From: Propionivibrio sp.
Lineage (GTDB): Bacteria; Pseudomonadota; Gammaproteobacteria; Burkholderiales; Rhodocyclaceae
Assembly (NCBI RefSeq): GCF_047602565.1
Contig: NZ_JASGGX010000001.1
Location: forward strand, 4,667,257 to 4,731,256
Length of the DNA stretch: 64,000 bases
Reading direction: 5' to 3'
In this document: positions 40,671 through 50,748 of the stretch, one piece after another
Layout of the letters: each line of letters begins with the position of its first letter
How positions within the stretch are numbered: the stretch's first letter is position 1
The notes under the pieces: generated by a model
What the model saw: only the letters and a program-made list of their open reading frames with translations
Told to the model about the DNA's origin: nothing
Databases searched by the model: none
Made by a program: the position numbers and the translations under genes

Positions 40671-42478
40671 GCCGCACCTCCCTGCGCCACGGAGAGCGCC
40701 ACCGCAACCGGCCGCACCCAGATCGGCGTGGCCGAGAGCATGAAGGTCTCGCCCGACCAGGCCAGCAGCAGGGTGTGGAACATCGTGCTGGCGATCGCCT
40801 CGGCGGCGGCCGGCGGTACGGCGTTGCCGATACGCTCGCGCCAAGCGCTGTCGGAGAGGCCGTCCAGTTCAAGAACCTCCTCGGGATCGACCAGCGACTG
40901 GATCGCGGCGAGCTCGAGCGTGGTGAATGGCCGGTGCCAGGTGCCATCGAGGGCGCGGATGACCGCGACCAGCTTGTCGCTGGCCTCCGGCAAGCGCGGG
41001 TCGGCCACGGACCAGCGGCCGTTGTCGTGGCAGGCGGCCGACGATACGGCGCCGCTCGATTGCTCCCACTTGCAGACGCCGTAGTGGCCGCCGGTCAGGT
41101 AGTGGTCGCCGGGCTGCGGGATGCCGTTCGGGCGGGGGTCTGCAACGGCGTAAGCGCCGGAGTCATCGCTGCTGATCACCGTCCCGGTGCTGCCGCTGAA
41201 TTTCGCCACGGCGTATTTGCCGAACGGTTTGCGGTCTTGTGGCGGCCGTGGATCGGCCACGCATTGCCCGGAGCCATGCGCGCTGGTGACGGCGACCGCC
41301 GAACGCTGCCACGGGACGATACGAAACTCGTTCGAATGCTTGGCCGGGCCGGCGTGCCGCGGATCGGCGACGCAGAACGTGCCCTGCCCGGGCGACTTGA
41401 TGTTGATGATCGCGCCGGACGTATCTTCCATGCGCATCACGCCGTACTGCGAGTATTCCAGCATGCCTGCCGGCGGACGCGGATCAGCGATCGAGAAGGC
41501 GCCGTTGCTCGGGCTCGATCGGCCCTGGATCGTGCCGCTGGTATCCTCCCAGCGCTGCACGCCGAGATAGCCGTGATGATAGCCGGGAACGATCAGGTAG
41601 TCGCGCAGATAGCCGTCCTCGACCGCCAGCCGGTTCAGGCTGCGCCAGTCGCTGCCGGCTTCGACGAAGGCCAGCCGGACCCACGTTTTCCACTGTAGCG
41701 AAGGAATCCGGTGCATCGGACCGCCGGCGGGATCGCCCGGCAGCGGCATGCGGCCGAGGACGGTGCCGACGGCCTGCAGGCGCTTCTTCGGCGGCTCGTA
41801 CAGGAACGGCGGCACCTTGGCGGTGTTGCGCGCGACCAGCAGGAAGCGCTTACGGCTCTCGGCCAGCCCGCCGAGCTCGCCGCAGTCGTGCGTCGTCTCG
41901 GCCACGGCGTAGCCGTAGGCGCGCAGCAGGTCGCCGATCTGGTCGAGCAGGTGCCGGCCGCGCGTCGCGATCCTGGGCACGTTCTCGAAAACGATCAGCT
42001 CGGGCAGATTGTCCTTGAACGCCACGAGCATCAGCCAGACGCCACGCAGCGTCAGGCGGTTGAGCGCCTGGTATTTGTCCGTCTTGCTCCGGGTCTCGTT
42101 GAGCAGCCCGGAGAAGCCCTTGCACGGTGCAGAGAGGAAGACGATGTGCGGGAATTCGTGGCCGGCGGCCTTGCGGATGTCCTCGGGCGTGGCCTCGCAC
42201 CAGCCGGCCGGCGGCTCGCGGCCGTGGAAGGCGATGTACTGCGCGCGGTCGAAGAGGTCCAGCGTCGTGGCCTCGACGCCGACCAGGCGCTTGAAGTCGC
42301 GGTTGGCCGCGGCGTCGACGTCGACCGAACCGATGCAGCGCGAGCGCGCGATCATGTTGCCGACGCGCGCCTTGCCACGCATGAAGCCCTTGGCGCCGCC
42401 GCCGATAGCGCCGAAGAGGTGAAAATGGCGGATCTCGCGGACGTCCGGCGCAGCGAAGGTAAAGGCGTCGCGTTTCAT
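40667..42478 (-). CDS. Phage DNA cytosine-5 methyltransferase
   Basis: HLFGAIGGG (motif I variant), PCKGFS (IV), ENV (VI), RKRF (VIII), IGNAVPP (X). Confidence 0.88.
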   Translation of the reverse strand: MKRDAFTFAAPDVREIRHFHLFGAIGGGAKGFMRGKARVGNMIARSRCIGSVDVDAAANRDFKRLVGVEATTLDLFDRAQYIAFHGREPPAGWCEATPEDIRKAAGHEFPHIVFLSAPCKGFSGLLNETRSKTDKYQALNRLTLRGVWLMLVAFKDNLPELIVFENVPRIATRGRHLLDQIGDLLRAYGYAVAETTHDCGELGGLAESRKRFLLVARNTAKVPPFLYEPPKKRLQAVGTVLGRMPLPGDPAGGPMHRIPSLQWKTWVRLAFVEAGSDWRSLNRLAVEDGYLRDYLIVPGYHHGYLGVQRWEDTSGTIQGRSSPSNGAFSIADPRPPAGMLEYSQYGVMRMEDTSGAIINIKSPGQGTFCVADPRHAGPAKHSNEFRIVPWQRSAVAVTSAHGSGQCVADPRPPQDRKPFGKYAVAKFSGSTGTVISSDDSGAYAVADPRPNGIPQPGDHYLTGGHYGVCKWEQSSGAVSSAACHDNGRWSVADPRLPEASDKLVAVIRALDGTWHRPFTTLELAAIQSLVDPEEVLELDGLSDSAWRERIGNAVPPAAAEAIASTMFHTLLLAWSGETFMLSATPIWVRPVAVALSVAQGGAA

Positions 42479-43290
42479 GCGGCACCGTCCTGATCCTTCG
42501 TTTCGAGGGCCGCCGCCGCTTTGCCGGACTGCCGGATCTCGCCGCGCAGGCCATGCAGCACTTCGGTCAACCGTCCGAGCTTAGTGCCATAACCCCAGTC
42601 ACCGGGAGAGCCGAGGTAGCGCAGCAGCGGCATCAGCTCGGCTTCCATCCGCACGGCCTCGTCGTAGCTCAGCGGCGACGAGCACAGCGCCATGTCGGCG
42701 TATTTCGTTGATGCGGGTTTAGTCTGTCGATCGAGAGGGATGCGTGCCGGGCCGTCCGGATCGGTCAACTCCCAATACCGGTCGAGGAAGTACTCTTCCG
42801 CCTCGTCGGGTGACCACGCCACGATGCTGTCCGGCAGCGGGTCGACGTGCGCGATGAGGGACCATTCGTCGTCGTGCTCGGGCATCAGGTCGCGCTGCTC
42901 AGTGGCCAGCAGGATCAGGTCCGCATGCTTGACCTCCGCGGGGATCTGCGCGGGCAGGCCGAGCTTGCGGAAGATGTCGGCCTGCAGGCGCGCTTCGATG
43001 ACGCGGTATTCGGGCAGCAGGTTCTTCAGCGGCCGGGTGACGTCGCCGATGTAGGCCTCGACCGCGTCGTGGAAGAGCGCGATCAGGGCGTTCTCGGGGG
43101 AGACGACGTCGCTGACCAGAACGCTGTGCTGCGCGACCGAGTAGAACTCGCGGGTGTGTCCGGCGAAGCGGCAGACCTGCGACAGCGCGTGCGCGATGTC
43201 GGCGACCTGGACGACGTTGTGCGTCGGGTCGAGGAAGTCGAAATAATGGCCCGAGGCGGTGAGGATGTCGGGGCGGATGGAGATGGTCAT
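42475..43290 (-). CDS. HD-domain phosphohydrolase (YfbR/5'-deoxynucleotidase-like)
   Basis: DIAHALS..CRFAGH, YSVAQHS, LFHDAVEAYIGD. Confidence 0.85.
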   Translation of the reverse strand: MTISIRPDILTASGHYFDFLDPTHNVVQVADIAHALSQVCRFAGHTREFYSVAQHSVLVSDVVSPENALIALFHDAVEAYIGDVTRPLKNLLPEYRVIEARLQADIFRKLGLPAQIPAEVKHADLILLATEQRDLMPEHDDEWSLIAHVDPLPDSIVAWSPDEAEEYFLDRYWELTDPDGPARIPLDRQTKPASTKYADMALCSSPLSYDEAVRMEAELMPLLRYLGSPGDWGYGTKLGRLTEVLHGLRGEIRQSGKAAAALETKDQDGAA

Positions 43291-43622: not shown

Positions 43623-44953
43623 TACGCGGATCTCCTGTAGGTTTTGGTGAGGTTGGTTTTGACGCAGTGCCCGCGCCGGCGCAGCAGGTTGGTCAGCTCG
43701 GCGCGGTCGTGGTGGCTGTGGGAGGCCTGCCGGAACAGGCCGAAGTAGCTGTTGGCCGTGGCGAACAGGTCGTCGTCATCGACCTCGTAAACCCGGCAGA
43801 TGGCTTCGTGGAAGGTGCGCCGGCGCAGGGTGCGGTGCCATGGCTTGACGACCTGGCCGACGAAATCGATGCCGCGGGCGATCGGCTGCAGGACGGTCTT
43901 CTTCGGGTTCAGCCGGGCGTGCAGCCTGTCCTGCAGCACGGCCTCCATCTTTTCCTTCGCCGCGTTGAGCCAGTCGGGCGATTCATGGAGCAGAACGAAG
44001 TCGTCCACGTAGCGGATGAAGTGGCGGCAGTGCAGGACGTGCTTGGCGAACTGGTCGAGCACGTCGAGGTAGACGTTCGCCCCGAACTGGCTCGGCAGGT
44101 TGCCGATCGCCATGCCGATGTGCCCCGGCTGGCTGGCCAGGCGCTTGTGCGGCGGCACGCGCTCGATCAGGCGGGCGTTCCCGCGCAGCTCATAGTTCTG
44201 GCGCGGGTCGTGGAACATGATCACCTCGGCGAGCCACAACCACCACGGATCGTCGATGTGCGGGGCCAGCAGGCCCATCAGGATGCGCTTGTCGATCCGG
44301 ACGAAGAAGTTCTCCAGGTCGCATTTCAGGTAATACGCGGGACGGCTCCAGTTCTGGGTGATGCTGCGCACCTTGGCCTCCAGGCGCTCGGCGGCGTACA
44401 GCGTGCCGCGGCCCGGGATGCAGGCGCAGGAATCGGCGATGAAGCGGGCGTGAAAATAGGGCGCGAGGCGGTTGTGCAGAAGGTGATGAACGATGCGATC
44501 ACGGAAATCTGCTGCCCACACCTCGCGCGGCTTCGGCCGGGTGATGACGAAACAGATGGATTTGCCGGGAGCGTAGCTGCCCTCGGTCAGTTCCTCATGG
44601 AGTTGCCACAAGTTGCGTTCCAGATCCTGCTCGAACGCCAGCGCGCTTGCCGTGTTCCGCTTGTTCTTGCGGCAATCGATATAGGCGCGGAGCAGGAGCT
44701 CGAAGGAGTAGTTGGATGAATCTGCTGACGGCACGGACGCGGACCTCCGACGAGAGGTTGTTGTTGTTCTGATTGCCGTTGTCGAAGTTCTGGACGAACG
44801 CCGTGTGTTCGCACTTTCCACGTCGCCCCGCCGACTGTTCGGCAGGGAAACTGCACCGGACCGGCGGGAGCCGGGCTCCCCGGTATCCGCGGTGTGCATA
44901 GCCGTGCCCTCGTGAGGCAGGGGTGCGACCAGATTCATAATGCGCACGGTCAT
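43622..44953 (-). CDS. DGR reverse transcriptase (start codon uncertain; TR lies within the 5' part of the ORF)
   Basis: FRDRIVHH, KCDLENFF, IGNLPSQ (DGR-type GxxxSQ), RYVDD, LNPKKT, GIDFVG; adjacent to avd and TR. Confidence 0.95.
   Translation of the reverse strand: MTVRIMNLVAPLPHEGTAMHTADTGEPGSRRSGAVSLPNSRRGDVESANTRRSSRTSTTAIRTTTTSRRRSASVPSADSSNYSFELLLRAYIDCRKNKRNTASALAFEQDLERNLWQLHEELTEGSYAPGKSICFVITRPKPREVWAADFRDRIVHHLLHNRLAPYFHARFIADSCACIPGRGTLYAAERLEAKVRSITQNWSRPAYYLKCDLENFFVRIDKRILMGLLAPHIDDPWWLWLAEVIMFHDPRQNYELRGNARLIERVPPHKRLASQPGHIGMAIGNLPSQFGANVYLDVLDQFAKHVLHCRHFIRYVDDFVLLHESPDWLNAAKEKMEAVLQDRLHARLNPKKTVLQPIARGIDFVGQVVKPWHRTLRRRTFHEAICRVYEVDDDDLFATANSYFGLFRQASHSHHDRAELTNLLRRRGHCVKTNLTKTYRRSA
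44724..44804 (-). repeat. DGR template repeat (TR)
   Basis: 81 nt with 20 adenines, rich in AAC codons; differs from both VRs only at A positions. Confidence 0.95.
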
Positions 44954-45329: not shown

Positions 45330-45361
45330 CTGAAGGACTAAAGGATCAAAGGGTCAAAGAG
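45330..45361 (-). repeat. 8-bp tandem repeat downstream of VR1
   Basis: CTCTTTGA CCCTTTGA TCCTTTAG TCCTTCAG on the minus strand. Confidence 0.7.
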
Positions 45362-45848
45362 GAATCTCGCTGACGGCACGGACGCGGACCTCCGACGAGA
45401 GGTGGCTGTAGTCCTGACTGCCGCTGACGAAGCTCTGGACGAACGCCGCCTTGCCGCTGAGCGTCTTAGTGAGCAGCCAGTACCAGGGAGACGTCTCGAA
45501 GCGATCGCGCAGGTTGTCGAACAGCGTGAGGCCCTGGTGGCGGGTCGGCAGGTGGCTGTCCATATCCGGCTTGACGTTCTCGGCGTGCTTGACGGCGTCC
45601 TCGTAATTCATTGCCACCTGCGGATCGTCGTCCCACAGGATCAGGTGCACCAGGCGGTCGCCGGTCTTCGAGAGCGAGACGCCGGCGTAGGTGGCGGCGA
45701 GGCCGGGCCACTTGTCGCCGACGGCCGGGACGGCCCGGGGGGCGGACGAGGCCTTGGCGGCGGAGGCAATGGCCAGCGCGGCGAACAGGCCGACCGGCGG
45801 TTGCGCGTGGGCCAGGGTGATGTTGACGTTTTCGATGTGAAGTTTCAT
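45354..45848 (-). CDS. DGR target protein 1 (DUF1566/C-type lectin-like fold, C-terminal VR)
   Basis: LPTR, WYWL, AFVQSF..G.Q......VRVRAV C-terminus; contains VR1. Confidence 0.9.
   Translation of the reverse strand: MKLHIENVNITLAHAQPPVGLFAALAIASAAKASSAPRAVPAVGDKWPGLAATYAGVSLSKTGDRLVHLILWDDDPQVAMNYEDAVKHAENVKPDMDSHLPTRHQGLTLFDNLRDRFETSPWYWLLTKTLSGKAAFVQSFVSGSQDYSHLSSEVRVRAVSEIPL
45369..45449 (-). repeat. DGR variable repeat VR1
   Basis: 72/81 identical to TR; all 9 mismatches at TR adenines. Confidence 0.95.
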
Positions 45849-45863
45849 GTTGGGGGATTCCTG

Positions 45864-45887
45864 ATGAAGGATTAAAGGACTGAAGAA
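45864..45887 (-). repeat. 8-bp tandem repeat downstream of VR2
   Basis: TTCTTCAG TCCTTTAA TCCTTCAT on the minus strand. Confidence 0.7.
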
Positions 45888-46492
45888 CCGAGTTGAATCA
45901 GCCTGACGGCACGGACGCGGACCTCCGACGAGAGGCCGTCGTCGCACTGAAGGCCGTTGTCGAAGTACTGGACGAACGCCGTCATGCCGCCGGGGAAAAG
46001 AGTCGAAGAGCCGTACCACGCGGCGTCGAACGCCTCCGAACCGCCCGCCTTGAAGGCCTTCAGCGTCGTCTGCGCCGGGTTGTCCTCGGTGTACAGCCAG
46101 CCGGGCGGCACGCTGTTGGGGTTCTCGCCGTCGCGCCATGAGCAGCAATTGGGATACGCGGTCGGCTTAAAGTGGCGGTAGCCCAGTTCGAGCACATCGC
46201 GGCTGGGGACGAGCCAGTCGCGGTAGCCGTTGATATCCAGCTCGGCGACGCGCTTGGCGGCTTCGCTGCCGGAGGCGATCAGGGCCGTGGTGTTGGCGGC
46301 GCAGTCGTGGGGGCTGTACTCGCCCTGAGCGGTCTTGCCGGTGAACAGGAGTCTGGCGATGATCTGTCCGGCCGCTTTCGGCGCCCAAACGAAGCCTTTG
46401 TGGGTGCCATTGATGTTGATGACGCCGCCGAAATAGCCGCCGTCGATGAAGGTGCCGATTCGCGGGGTTGCTGAAGGGGTGAATTGGTGCAT
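45872..46492 (-). CDS. DGR target protein 2 (DUF1566/C-type lectin-like fold, C-terminal VR)
   Basis: GGYFGG, INGYRDWLVPSRDVL, WYGSST, AFVQYFDNG.Q......VRVRAV; contains VR2. Confidence 0.9.
   Translation of the reverse strand: MHQFTPSATPRIGTFIDGGYFGGVININGTHKGFVWAPKAAGQIIARLLFTGKTAQGEYSPHDCAANTTALIASGSEAAKRVAELDINGYRDWLVPSRDVLELGYRHFKPTAYPNCCSWRDGENPNSVPPGWLYTEDNPAQTTLKAFKAGGSEAFDAAWYGSSTLFPGGMTAFVQYFDNGLQCDDGLSSEVRVRAVRLIQLGSSVL
45903..45982 (-). repeat. DGR variable repeat VR2
   Basis: 71/80 identical to TR; all 9 mismatches at TR adenines. Confidence 0.95.
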
Positions 46493-46500
46493 GGTCGCTC

Positions 46501-46808
46501 CTAGGTGGTGGTGGGGTGGTCGGGGTGAAGGCAGAAGACTCGTATCCCGTTCGCGTTGCGGCGGACGATCTGCTCCAGCGCGATCAGGGTGTTGAGTGAT
46601 GCAGCGTGCTGTCCTTGCTGAAACCGGTGGCCTCGGCGCACTGCCGCGCGGTCAGCGGGCCGTGCTGCGAGATCGCGTCGAGCAGCCCCTGCCGCCGGGC
46701 GAGGCTGATCGCGTCCCGTTGGGAGTTCGCCAACGCTTCCGCCCGCCGGGCGGCCTCGGCGGCCACGGCCAATTCGAGCGCGCGCATTTCGTCGGCGAAG
46801 GTCAGCAT
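46501..46808 (-). pseudogene. Small winged-HTH protein with a 1-nt frameshift near 46595
   Basis: LDAISQHGPLTARQCAEATGFSKDSTLHH, continuing in another frame as (L)NTLIALEQIVRR. Confidence 0.55.
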
Positions 46809-46878
46809 GTCTTTCGCCTCCCCGCCGACGACGGGTGGATGAATACGGCATTGATCATGATTTTTCGCTCCTGATGGG

Positions 46879-50246: not shown

Positions 50247-50654
50247 CTACCGCCGGCACATCGGCGTGCCCGACTCCGCAAAGCCCCGCACCCGGGCGAA
50301 GCTCGAGCTCTGCCCAGGCTTGTCCATGACGTCGATACGCGCCGTTCCGCTACCCGCGTCCAGGACGTCGACCACCAGCAAGGTCGTGGTAATGCCGCTC
50401 AACACGGTGACCTCGATCACGCCCTTCTTCAGGTCCTGGTGGAGATCGCCCTGCACCAGCCAGGTCGAACCGATCGATCCAAACTGGAAACAGCGCCGCA
50501 TTTCCTCGAGCAGCGAACGATAGGCCGCCTGGTAGTCCTGGCCTACGGAAAAGCTCTTGGGCGCTGACTGTTCCCGGATTTCACGGGCGGTCATCGGCGC
50601 ACAGCCGGCGACGACGAAGGCCGCGACAACGATAAACGATGATGTGATTTTCAT
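50247..50654 (-). CDS. Lipoprotein (moron-like)
   Basis: Lipobox VAGC after a hydrophobic leader. Confidence 0.7.
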   Translation of the reverse strand: MKITSSFIVVAAFVVAGCAPMTAREIREQSAPKSFSVGQDYQAAYRSLLEEMRRCFQFGSIGSTWLVQGDLHQDLKKGVIEVTVLSGITTTLLVVDVLDAGSGTARIDVMDKPGQSSSFARVRGFAESGTPMCRR

Positions 50655-50748
50655 GGATACCCCTTTTTTCAAGGAAGCCTAGCATCGTCGAGCAAACCTC
50701 TCAATCGTCGAAACATGCGGCGCGCCACGGCCTTGGTGCGGGTGAAGC

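Follow-up and report, generated by a model that had tools for sequence, protein, structure and literature searches.

By default, diversity-generating retroelements (DGRs) of phages are taken to diversify receptor-binding tail proteins (PMC8144416; 10.1101/2024.11.15.621889). A prophage of Propionivibrio sp. (Rhodocyclaceae) raises the question of what such an element diversifies when its targets are not tail genes. The prophage lies in a 64,000-nucleotide (nt) stretch of contig NZ_JASGGX010000001.1 (positions 4,667,257 to 4,731,256; hereafter the window), and it carries a DGR whose two small target genes, target 1 (T1) and target 2 (T2), are located in an early operon. An initial reading of the sequence (the original prediction) proposed that the targets are intracellular, hypervariable ligand-binding proteins, for instance anti-defense or host-takeover factors that may form a heterodimer, and not the tail fiber. 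In this analysis, we describe the element, its targets and its relatives in other phages, and we weigh this proposal against other explanations.

Five elements (T2, T1, bAvd, TR and RT) follow each other on the minus strand from 46492 to 43622, with short gaps or none. These elements, and the variable repeats within the targets, are as follows.

46492-45872, minus strand: T2, an open reading frame (ORF) of 206 amino acids (aa); predicted standalone C-type-lectin-fold protein of DUF1566/Lcl_C type, with a variable repeat (VR2) at its 3' end.
45981-45903, minus strand: VR2, within T2; 9 adenine-site differences from the template repeat (TR).
45848-45354, minus strand: T1, an ORF of 164 aa with its ATG at 45848 and a variable repeat (VR1) at its 3' end.
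45448-45369, minus strand: VR1, within T1; 8 adenine-site differences from the TR.
45327-44950, minus strand: accessory protein bAvd, 125 aa, four-helix (Pfam bAvd, E 2.9e-8; phrog_3206, 'Avd protein of DGR', E 1.8e-22).
44803-44724, minus strand: TR, an 80-nt core with 20 adenines, within the 5' extension of the reverse transcriptase ORF.
44953-43622, minus strand: reverse transcriptase (RT), long ORF (RVT_1, E 1.9e-11; generic RT model, E 1.6e-35), with the conserved RT domain from about 44700.

The repeat search returned one three-copy family, which consists of the TR and the two VRs. When the copies are aligned over the 80-nt TR-homologous block, anchored on an invariant 33-nt block at the 3' end, every mismatch falls at an adenine of the TR (8 of 8 for VR1 and 9 of 9 for VR2, thus all 17), and divergence between the TR and the VRs starts directly after ...GTGCCGTCAG. 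The 33-nt anchor has only three copies within the window. A TR search of the whole 4.86-Mb genome likewise recovered the TR and the two VRs only (next match, E 0.097); therefore, neither the tail protein gene J, nor the fiber genes, nor any other gene is a target of this DGR. In the reading frame of the VRs, the TR translates to TAFVQNFDNGNQNNNNLSSEVRVRAVS, with seven AAY codons and one GAC codon, so that about 10^8-10^9 peptides are possible for each target. The VRs end 11 and 5 codons ahead of the stop codons of the targets. The RT is 62-76% identical to RTs of related phage DGR cassettes, and the Pfam match of bAvd, at 34.6 bits, is under the Pfam cut-off of 40 bits. Taken as a whole, the element is a complete DGR.

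Two details of the cassette deserve mention. Short direct repeats of the TCCTTTAR/TCCTTCA type lie right after the stop codons of both VR-containing genes (45330-45353 and 45849-45880, minus strand) and are absent at the TR. Also, the stretch that leads from the TR to the first conserved RT helix (44724-44953, minus strand) has no ATG or GTG; in the gene call for a related metagenomic contig, L060, the RT begins inside the TR region.

L060 also bears on the activity of the element. This contig carries a prophage that is 95% identical to the window over 5.6 kb. Its TR differs from that of the window by one non-adenine change, a G>T substitution in the invariant 3' block (TCGTCGGAGG -> TCGTCTGAGG). 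The change is present in the TR and in both VRs of L060 (positions 6590, 7123 and 7768, at the ends of VR2, VR1 and the TR, respectively) and none of the three window copies has it; the VRs of L060 and the window differ at almost every adenine-derived position. Since the TR change of L060 has been copied into both of its VRs, TR-to-VR copying and retrohoming must be recent, and, as judged from these sequences, the DGR has recently been active.

The variants appear to be filtered by selection. We calculated column entropies for alignments of 51 T2 and 38 T1 homologues. Each family has nine variable columns of about 3 bits each, and these alternate with invariant A, F, G and Q. The variable columns contain no stop codons, and residues that an NNC codon cannot encode are limited to three tryptophans in one T2 column (3 of 51 sequences) and a single residue in one T1 column (1 of 38). 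The glutamine codons (CAG) contain TR adenines and still encode glutamine in 49-50 of 51 sequences; that these codons stay fixed indicates that selection filters the variants and thus that the proteins matter to the phage. Outside the variable positions, the scaffolds are 40-90% identical across phages of beta- and gammaproteobacteria, with many invariant residues and intact reading frames, a pattern that, at the level of sequence, is one of purifying selection.

Both targets model as C-type-lectin folds of the DUF1566/Lcl_C subtype. The Pfam model Lcl_C (DUF1566, PF07603) matches T2 below threshold (E 0.0067; 17.2 bits, compared with a cut-off of 34.9 bits), and T1 has no Pfam match. However, many of the 165 T2 homologues that we found carry precomputed PF07603 matches; for T1, we found 72 homologues. 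Of the 583 positions of phrog_4245, the last 160 are matched by both proteins (E 2.3e-17 for T2), and the Lcl_C-type motifs DW.[IV]P[SA]RD.LE and WYWSST...A...F..G.Q are present. AlphaFold2 models based on the family alignments have mean predicted local distance difference test scores (pLDDT) of 88.4 for T2, with a predicted template-modeling score (pTM) of 0.88, and of 83.8 for T1, of which residues 1-40 are of low confidence. In Foldseek searches, the best match to the PDB for both models is the C-terminal domain of Legionella Lcl (8q4e; E 8.2e-5 and template-modeling score 0.75 for T1, E 2.2e-3 and 0.61 for T2). The next matches of T1 are C-type lectins of snake venom and natural killer (NK) cell receptors and the Bdellovibrio fiber tip Bd2740 (E 9e-4 to 0.1), whereas other C-type-lectin-fold matches of T2 are not significant (E > 1), and a search of PDB sequences with the T2 profile gave only a marginal match to Lcl/HbP1 (E 0.22). 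Sequence likeness between T1 and T2 themselves is confined to the part that is dictated by the TR.

The two targets differ in what surrounds this fold. T2 is a bare lectin domain with no extension beyond it, and within the domain it has a conserved insertion of about 55 residues (…NYCSWRDGENPNSVP.GWLYT…). T1 begins with a conserved MKLHIENLxIT, which is followed by an Ala-rich hydrophobic helix of 13-14 residues, a linker of variable length, and then the lectin domain; the distant second targets of phages LPPA56 and Medea1 have an analogous N-terminal extension. We saw no signal peptide, lipobox or canonical membrane segment in T1 or T2, and the 19-residue Kyte-Doolittle maxima (0.93 for T2 and 1.43 for T1) are under the transmembrane level. 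Neither family has a conserved (covarying) pair of cysteines, and T1 has no cysteine at all. The targets thus show no sign of export, and a role on the virion stays compatible with these data.

Several side observations concern these families. The nearly invariant insertion loop of T2 (residues 115-135, WRDGENPNSVP.GWLY) recalls the EPN-type loops with which classical C-type lectins bind Ca2+ and sugars; by this analogy, calcium binding, if real, would favor an extracellular role. Among longer family members, one (P0014) most likely owes its length to a start-codon call that took in the winged-helix gene upstream, and another (P0120), from a 3.5-kb contig, has an N-terminal hydrophobic extension and was not included among the family variants. 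Three others (P0186-P0188) have real alternative N-terminal domains of about 130 aa, one of them with CxxC...CxxC, which have no Pfam match and accompany a frozen VR. The T1-type domain of P0188 (contig L052, 1346-2164) lies among early genes (Gp157 and dUTPase), next to neither an Avd nor an RT gene; the contig is myovirus-like.

The location of the cassette sets it apart from the tail genes of its own prophage. The tail module, on the minus strand, consists of genes for the tape measure, an L-like protein, J (1134 aa), a 163-aa fiber-like protein and a 173-aa protein; a lipoprotein gene comes after it, and then, on the plus strand, a CI-like repressor gene. No VR is present in J, in the small fiber or in the adjoining unannotated small ORF. 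The leftward operon begins with genes for a ribbon-helix-helix (RHH) protein, a cII-like protein (phrog_101, E 2e-22), a tyrosine recombinase, a DUF7673 protein and several small genes, and proceeds through T2, T1, Avd, the TR and the RT to a 110-aa protein, an HD hydrolase, a C5 methylase and an ASCH protein, and finally to a PAPS-reductase-like protein, a primase and the integrase. T2 starts 10 nt past the preceding stop codon, the RT stop codon abuts the next start, and spacing is tight or overlapping through the operon. The distance from the start of T2 to the last gene of the tail module (50749) is 4.26 kb. Two further features of this region are referred to below.

49481-49453, minus strand (leftward): predicted sigma-70-like promoter, TTGACA-17-TAGTAT, between the CI-like gene and the early operon.
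42475-43290, minus strand: HD-domain gene (YfbR-like 5'-deoxynucleotidase), which travels with the cassette in many loci.

The cassette lies about 3 kb downstream of the promoter-like site. Our scan for promoters and terminators is crude, as it relies on consensus matches only; within it, the minus strand showed no terminator-like site from this promoter to the cassette, and no separate promoter or terminator was found around the cassette. We infer that a transcript covering the DGR would start at the predicted leftward promoter.

What the original prediction observed in the sequence is confirmed; its interpretation is supported in part. A DGR with two small targets, the lack of signal peptides and transmembrane segments, the C-type-lectin fold, a place in the leftward early operon between cII/recombinase and the DNA-modification and replication genes (here supported by Pfam and PHROG matches), a distance of more than 4 kb from the tail module and the absence of TR-like sequence from the fiber and TipJ genes all agree with our results. 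Its statement that the targets have no fiber or trimerization region holds for T2; for T1, it overlooked the N-terminal motif, hydrophobic helix and linker.

Several neighbors of the cassette have features of their own. The place of the HD gene varies among relatives (L002, 8447-8989; L037, 13395-13937; L038, 13696-14217; L050, 6992-7546): it is either just upstream of T2 or a few genes downstream of the RT, and it is kept even between otherwise unrelated phages. To judge from these positions, it may be an accessory of this DGR lineage or merely linked cargo. The lipoprotein gene (50247-50672, minus strand; NCBIfam BPTD_2524, E 2.7e-9, below the cut-off) stands alone between the tail module and the CI-like gene and looks like a moron. 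Upstream of T2, a winged-helix gene (46501-46851, minus strand) is split into two frames near 46596/46597 by a 1-nt deletion (GCATCA-CTCAAC), and its counterpart in L060 is a single intact ORF of 106 aa (GCACCACCTCAAC); the split could stem from an error in sequencing, or the frameshift could be real. An ACC-rich tract (46505-46530, minus strand), which encodes the Thr/Pro-rich C-terminus of this gene, is 12 nt shorter than that of L060.

The early position is not peculiar to this prophage. We scanned one genome per species, with genes in related loci called by a simple GC3-based caller, and found 33 loci, of which 26 have T2 followed by Avd and RT genes, and most of them also have a T1-like gene. 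The hosts are Beta- and Gammaproteobacteria and include Sulfuriferula, Rhodocyclaceae, Pseudomonas, Comamonas, Polaromonas, Variovorax, Cupriavidus, Chromobacterium, Aquitalea and Aidingimonas, among others. Among the five genes on either side of the 26 cassettes, the upstream neighbors are exonuclease, RecT, YqaJ, DUF2303, dNMP kinase/phosphatase and ParB genes, and the downstream neighbors are DNA methylases and the integrase (phrog_1 in 15 and Pfam Phage_integrase in 13 of 121 scanned genes). A tail gene is near the cassette in only one of these 26 loci. The metagenome contigs L037, L038, L050 and L060 have the same early arrangement. Within the taxonomic family of the window, the domain occurs in 5 of 201 genomes, which is the pattern of accessory prophage cargo.

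Cultured phages carry the cassette as well. The same cassette is found in LPPA56, phPA-G and Cruim01, and a related one, with the same type of RT and other targets, in Magia and Shewanella phage QDWS. LPPA56, a phage of Pseudomonas aeruginosa, has in order the HD gene, T2-like and T1-like genes, Avd, the TR and the RT, and its VR differences are adenine-specific; its DGR operon is on the strand opposite the structural operon and convergent with it. In whole-genome tblastn comparisons with the window prophage, the T2 (38% identity), Avd (43%), RT (62%) and HD (45%) proteins of LPPA56 are matched, whereas for its tail proteins, among them J, the tape measure, the L-like protein and the small fiber, the window prophage has no detectable counterpart in LPPA56. 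Assignment of tail types to five phage records with the Pfam sheath and Phage-tail_3 models was uninformative, as even Magia, for which a sheath is reported, was unmatched. In phPA-G (Detrevirus), the cassette is downstream of CI and upstream of an exonuclease gene; in QDWS, it adjoins a C5 methylase and a Gam-like 'host nuclease inhibitor'; and in Burkholderia phage Magia, short lectin-fold targets are situated between RecT/nuclease genes and the integrase (PMC7883833). Medea1, a phage of P. syringae, has tandem DUF1566 genes (L001, 8268-9576; gp71 and gp72) between ERF/YqaJ/SSB genes and methylases. These genes share a 114-nt fossil VR repeat at their 3' ends (82% identity), and a 164-aa ORF follows in place of a TR, Avd or RT; Medea1 thus looks like a phage that has lost the DGR engine and kept its targets intact. 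Two genome loci also have target genes without an RT. Together, these loci establish that the early-operon position is conserved across a wide phage lineage.

What might two such proteins do? We favor, with confidence and doubt about evenly matched, the reading that T1 and T2 are early, off-virion, hypervariable binding proteins. The invariably early-left position, the lack of an attachment region in T2, the absence of VRs from the prophage's own J and small fiber, the lack of a conserved cysteine pair, the placement of the T1-type domain of P0188 among early genes and the portability of the cassette suggest such a role; moreover, because the cassette is common to phages with unrelated tails, an adhesin that docks on the virion would have to fit unrelated virions. 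Lambdoid phages keep genes for recombination and for evasion of host nucleases and restriction in the early-left operon (lambda gam and ral, P22 abc), and the neighbors of the DGR cassette are of this kind.

The mechanism that we propose is as follows. The phage is a temperate siphophage, and its early operon, which resembles that of lambda PL, would express the DGR. From the 80-nt TR transcript, the RT and bAvd would make a cDNA in which errors fall at adenines, and this cDNA would replace the final ~80 nt of the two tandem genes. In this way, 8-9 NNC-type codons for the C-terminal face of two small soluble lectin proteins would be rerandomized, with some 10^8-10^9 variants possible for each protein. 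T2 and T1 would be transcribed early, along with the recombination and DNA-modification genes, and would not become parts of the virion, but would presumably act in the infected cell as free hypervariable binders. The most likely ligand would be a strain-variable component of the host, for example a defense protein (and thus counterdefense) or another host factor. Each progeny genome would test its own variant in the next host, and an early intracellular protein would provide a direct link between genotype and phenotype at low multiplicity. Counterdefense as the specific role can be put forward only tentatively. Quite tentative is the fullest version of this proposal, namely, that a widespread lineage of temperate-phage DGRs makes an antibody-like repertoire of intracellular lectin-fold binders directed, early in infection, against strain-variable immunity proteins of the host.

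Several observations weigh against these proposals. When the T2 profile was searched exhaustively, 9,620 cluster representatives matched at E ≤ 1e-3, and 532 did so at E ≤ 1e-30. The best 150 matches comprise 70 standalone proteins, none of which exceeds 260 aa, and 80 longer ones. In the long proteins, the T2-type domain is C-terminal or present in tandem copies, and their N-termini are those of tail-fiber and virion-structural proteins (phrog_12796, 26622, 2631, 454 and 23008; virion protein 2163); several also carry Big_13, fn3, He_PIG, ALTTAQ or Laminin_G_3 domains. The homology between T2 and the C-terminal domains of these proteins spans all of T2 (profile E 1e-46 to 1e-128), and, by its sequence, the T2 domain is the same as that at the tips of true receptor-binding fibers. 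Likeness to a tail receptor-binding protein, which the original prediction had named as evidence against an intracellular role, thus exists at the level of the domain. Fold matches in BFVD similarly mix small DUF1566 proteins with S74 and collagen-repeat fiber-like proteins, and the virulent phage PMBT3 has a homologue of 31% identity at the end of its late/lysis module, after a 495-aa ORF. All DGR targets and DUF1566 proteins of known function are extracellular or on the virion, and those of phage DGRs are all receptor-binding proteins (PMC5758913, PMC8144416). The lack of a signal peptide, on which the original prediction relied, does not imply an intracellular location, because virion proteins do without one too; its claim of intracellular ligand binding finds its support instead in the early operon across the lineage and in the independence of the cassette from tail type. 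As for the suggested anti-defense or host-takeover role, which was purely conjectural, searches of T1 and T2 against PADLOC (defense families), NCBIfam and Pfam matched no domain other than the lectin one and revealed no link to a defense system, and a 2026 virome survey found no DGR aimed at known anti-defense proteins (10.64898/2026.03.05.709809).

Much of this evidence could be explained if T1 and T2 were accessory adhesins for the host surface, made in the cytoplasm and then attached noncovalently to the virion or released at lysis, that widen or switch receptor recognition in the manner of Mtd or of the T2-type gp38 adhesin. T1 would dock through its N-terminal peptide, T2 perhaps through T1; the conserved motif, helix and flexible linker of T1 could indeed be a docking or trimerization element. 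The early position could then reflect where a mobile cassette is tolerated, and where this one happened to land, rather than when the proteins act. We nevertheless consider this explanation unlikely. The position is consistently early-left, and in LPPA56 the DGR is even on the strand opposite the late operon; the cassette is shared by phages without detectable similarity of their tails; T2 has no anchor of any kind; and we know of no lambdoid virion protein that is encoded in a PL-type operon.

The sporadic occurrence of the cassette would also be expected of cargo that serves the lysogen, in which T1 and T2, expressed from the prophage, would be hypervariable sensors or blockers that detect or exclude superinfecting phages. 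The genes rexAB and sieB are located in the same region of lambdoid phages and would be precedents, and the cassette is downstream of and co-directional with a CI-like gene in L037, L038 and phPA-G. Moreover, DGR-diversified intracellular sensors of conflict systems are known from multicellular bacteria, of which the targets would be a phage-borne analogue (PMC10907252). This role appears improbable to us: the window cassette is packed among lytic-cycle genes some distance past the leftward promoter and without a promoter-like site of its own, it has no PADLOC match, effector domain or partner gene, and, if the operon is repressed in lysogens, neither the targets nor the RT would be made. Finally, the cassette could be a selfish passenger, in which the lectin domains are remnants of tail-fiber tips that are kept as homing sites and have no function for the phage. 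Movement of the cassette between unrelated phages and the retention of targets without an RT in Medea1 and the two genome loci are compatible with this notion. However, targets that stay intact after loss of the RT can also be read the other way, and the conserved scaffolds with intact frames, the fixed glutamine codons at TR adenines and the variable columns that are nearly all NNC-encoded and free of stops make a functionless passenger highly improbable.

Comparison with known systems helps to place the off-virion reading that we favor. The DGR of Bordetella phage BPP-1 (mtd-avd-TR-brt) has the same order of target, Avd, TR and RT, the same adenine-specific mutagenesis, and a VR at the 3' end of the target that encodes the binding face of a C-type lectin. 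In contrast, Mtd is a 381-aa trimeric protein of the tail-fiber tip, with N-terminal domains and a gene at the end of the tail module, whereas the window has two bare lectin-domain proteins, of 164 and 206 aa, that are encoded in an early operon and at a distance of 4.3 kb from the tail genes. Of the trimerization or fiber-attachment domains and tail-module location that characterize Mtd, we found none here, as T2 is bare and T1 has an extension of 40 residues. The lectin subtype is DUF1566/Lcl_C and not that of Mtd/FGE, and short 8-bp repeats follow the VRs, where the GC-rich hairpin that lies 3' of the VR in BPP-1 was not seen.

DGRs with several small DUF1566 targets have already been cataloged. 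Category 'd' of Wu et al. (2018), which has DUF1566/CLec2 VRs and includes Legionella LdtA, shares the VR class and domain of the window element (PMC5758913), as does the multi-VR DGR of Stenotrophomonas SKA14 described by Yan et al. (2019) (PMC6642488). About half of the proteins in category 'd' are short and consist of DUF1566 only, and a single TR can serve several DUF1566 targets in tandem (PMC5758913, PMC6642488). LdtA differs in being a surface lipoprotein with an export signal. The DGR surveys listed short, signal-less targets without genomic or temporal context or function; here, the context is the early operon of a phage. Closest to the window element are the DGRs of Magia, LPPA56, phPA-G/Detrevirus and QDWS, with RTs that are 62-65% identical, small lectin-fold targets and Avd; in the early-left operon, they too are flanked by recombination genes and the integrase. 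The targets of Magia (120-126 aa) belong to another sequence family, however, and one of them is 6 kb distant; its genome announcement mentions only 'relatively short reading frames' and suggests adaptation of host range (PMC7883833). The fiber and virion proteins of phrog_4245 have the same ~200-residue domain, including the conserved insertion of T2, and differ in their 200-2000-residue N-terminal anchor, immunoglobulin (Ig), fn3 or repeat regions. STAND/NLR-like antigen sensors of multicellular bacteria set a precedent, as conflict proteins, putatively intracellular, on which a DGR acts by way of a lectin domain at the C-terminus, but these are large, cellular, multidomain proteins with effector modules and not small, single-domain proteins encoded by phages (PMC10907252).

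In the literature that we searched, which does not cover all journals, we found no paper that places phage DGR targets in an early operon or gives them an intracellular or nonstructural role. Cultured phages carry the same or a related cassette, so the question of what an early-operon DGR does is directly testable, and for this reason we regard its interest as moderate to high. The early-operon lineage adjoins recombination, methylase and Gam-like genes, and it moves between phages with unrelated tails. If the targets instead prove to be additions to the virion, they would be adhesins that are encoded and made far from the structural module. If they act off the virion, the small, well-folding and signal-less DUF1566 scaffold would be a natural library of intracellular binders, and, should counterdefense be their role, targeted hypermutation would for the first time be seen to serve that purpose rather than adsorption. 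Off-virion action, if true, would give phage DGRs a second arena, inside the infected cell.

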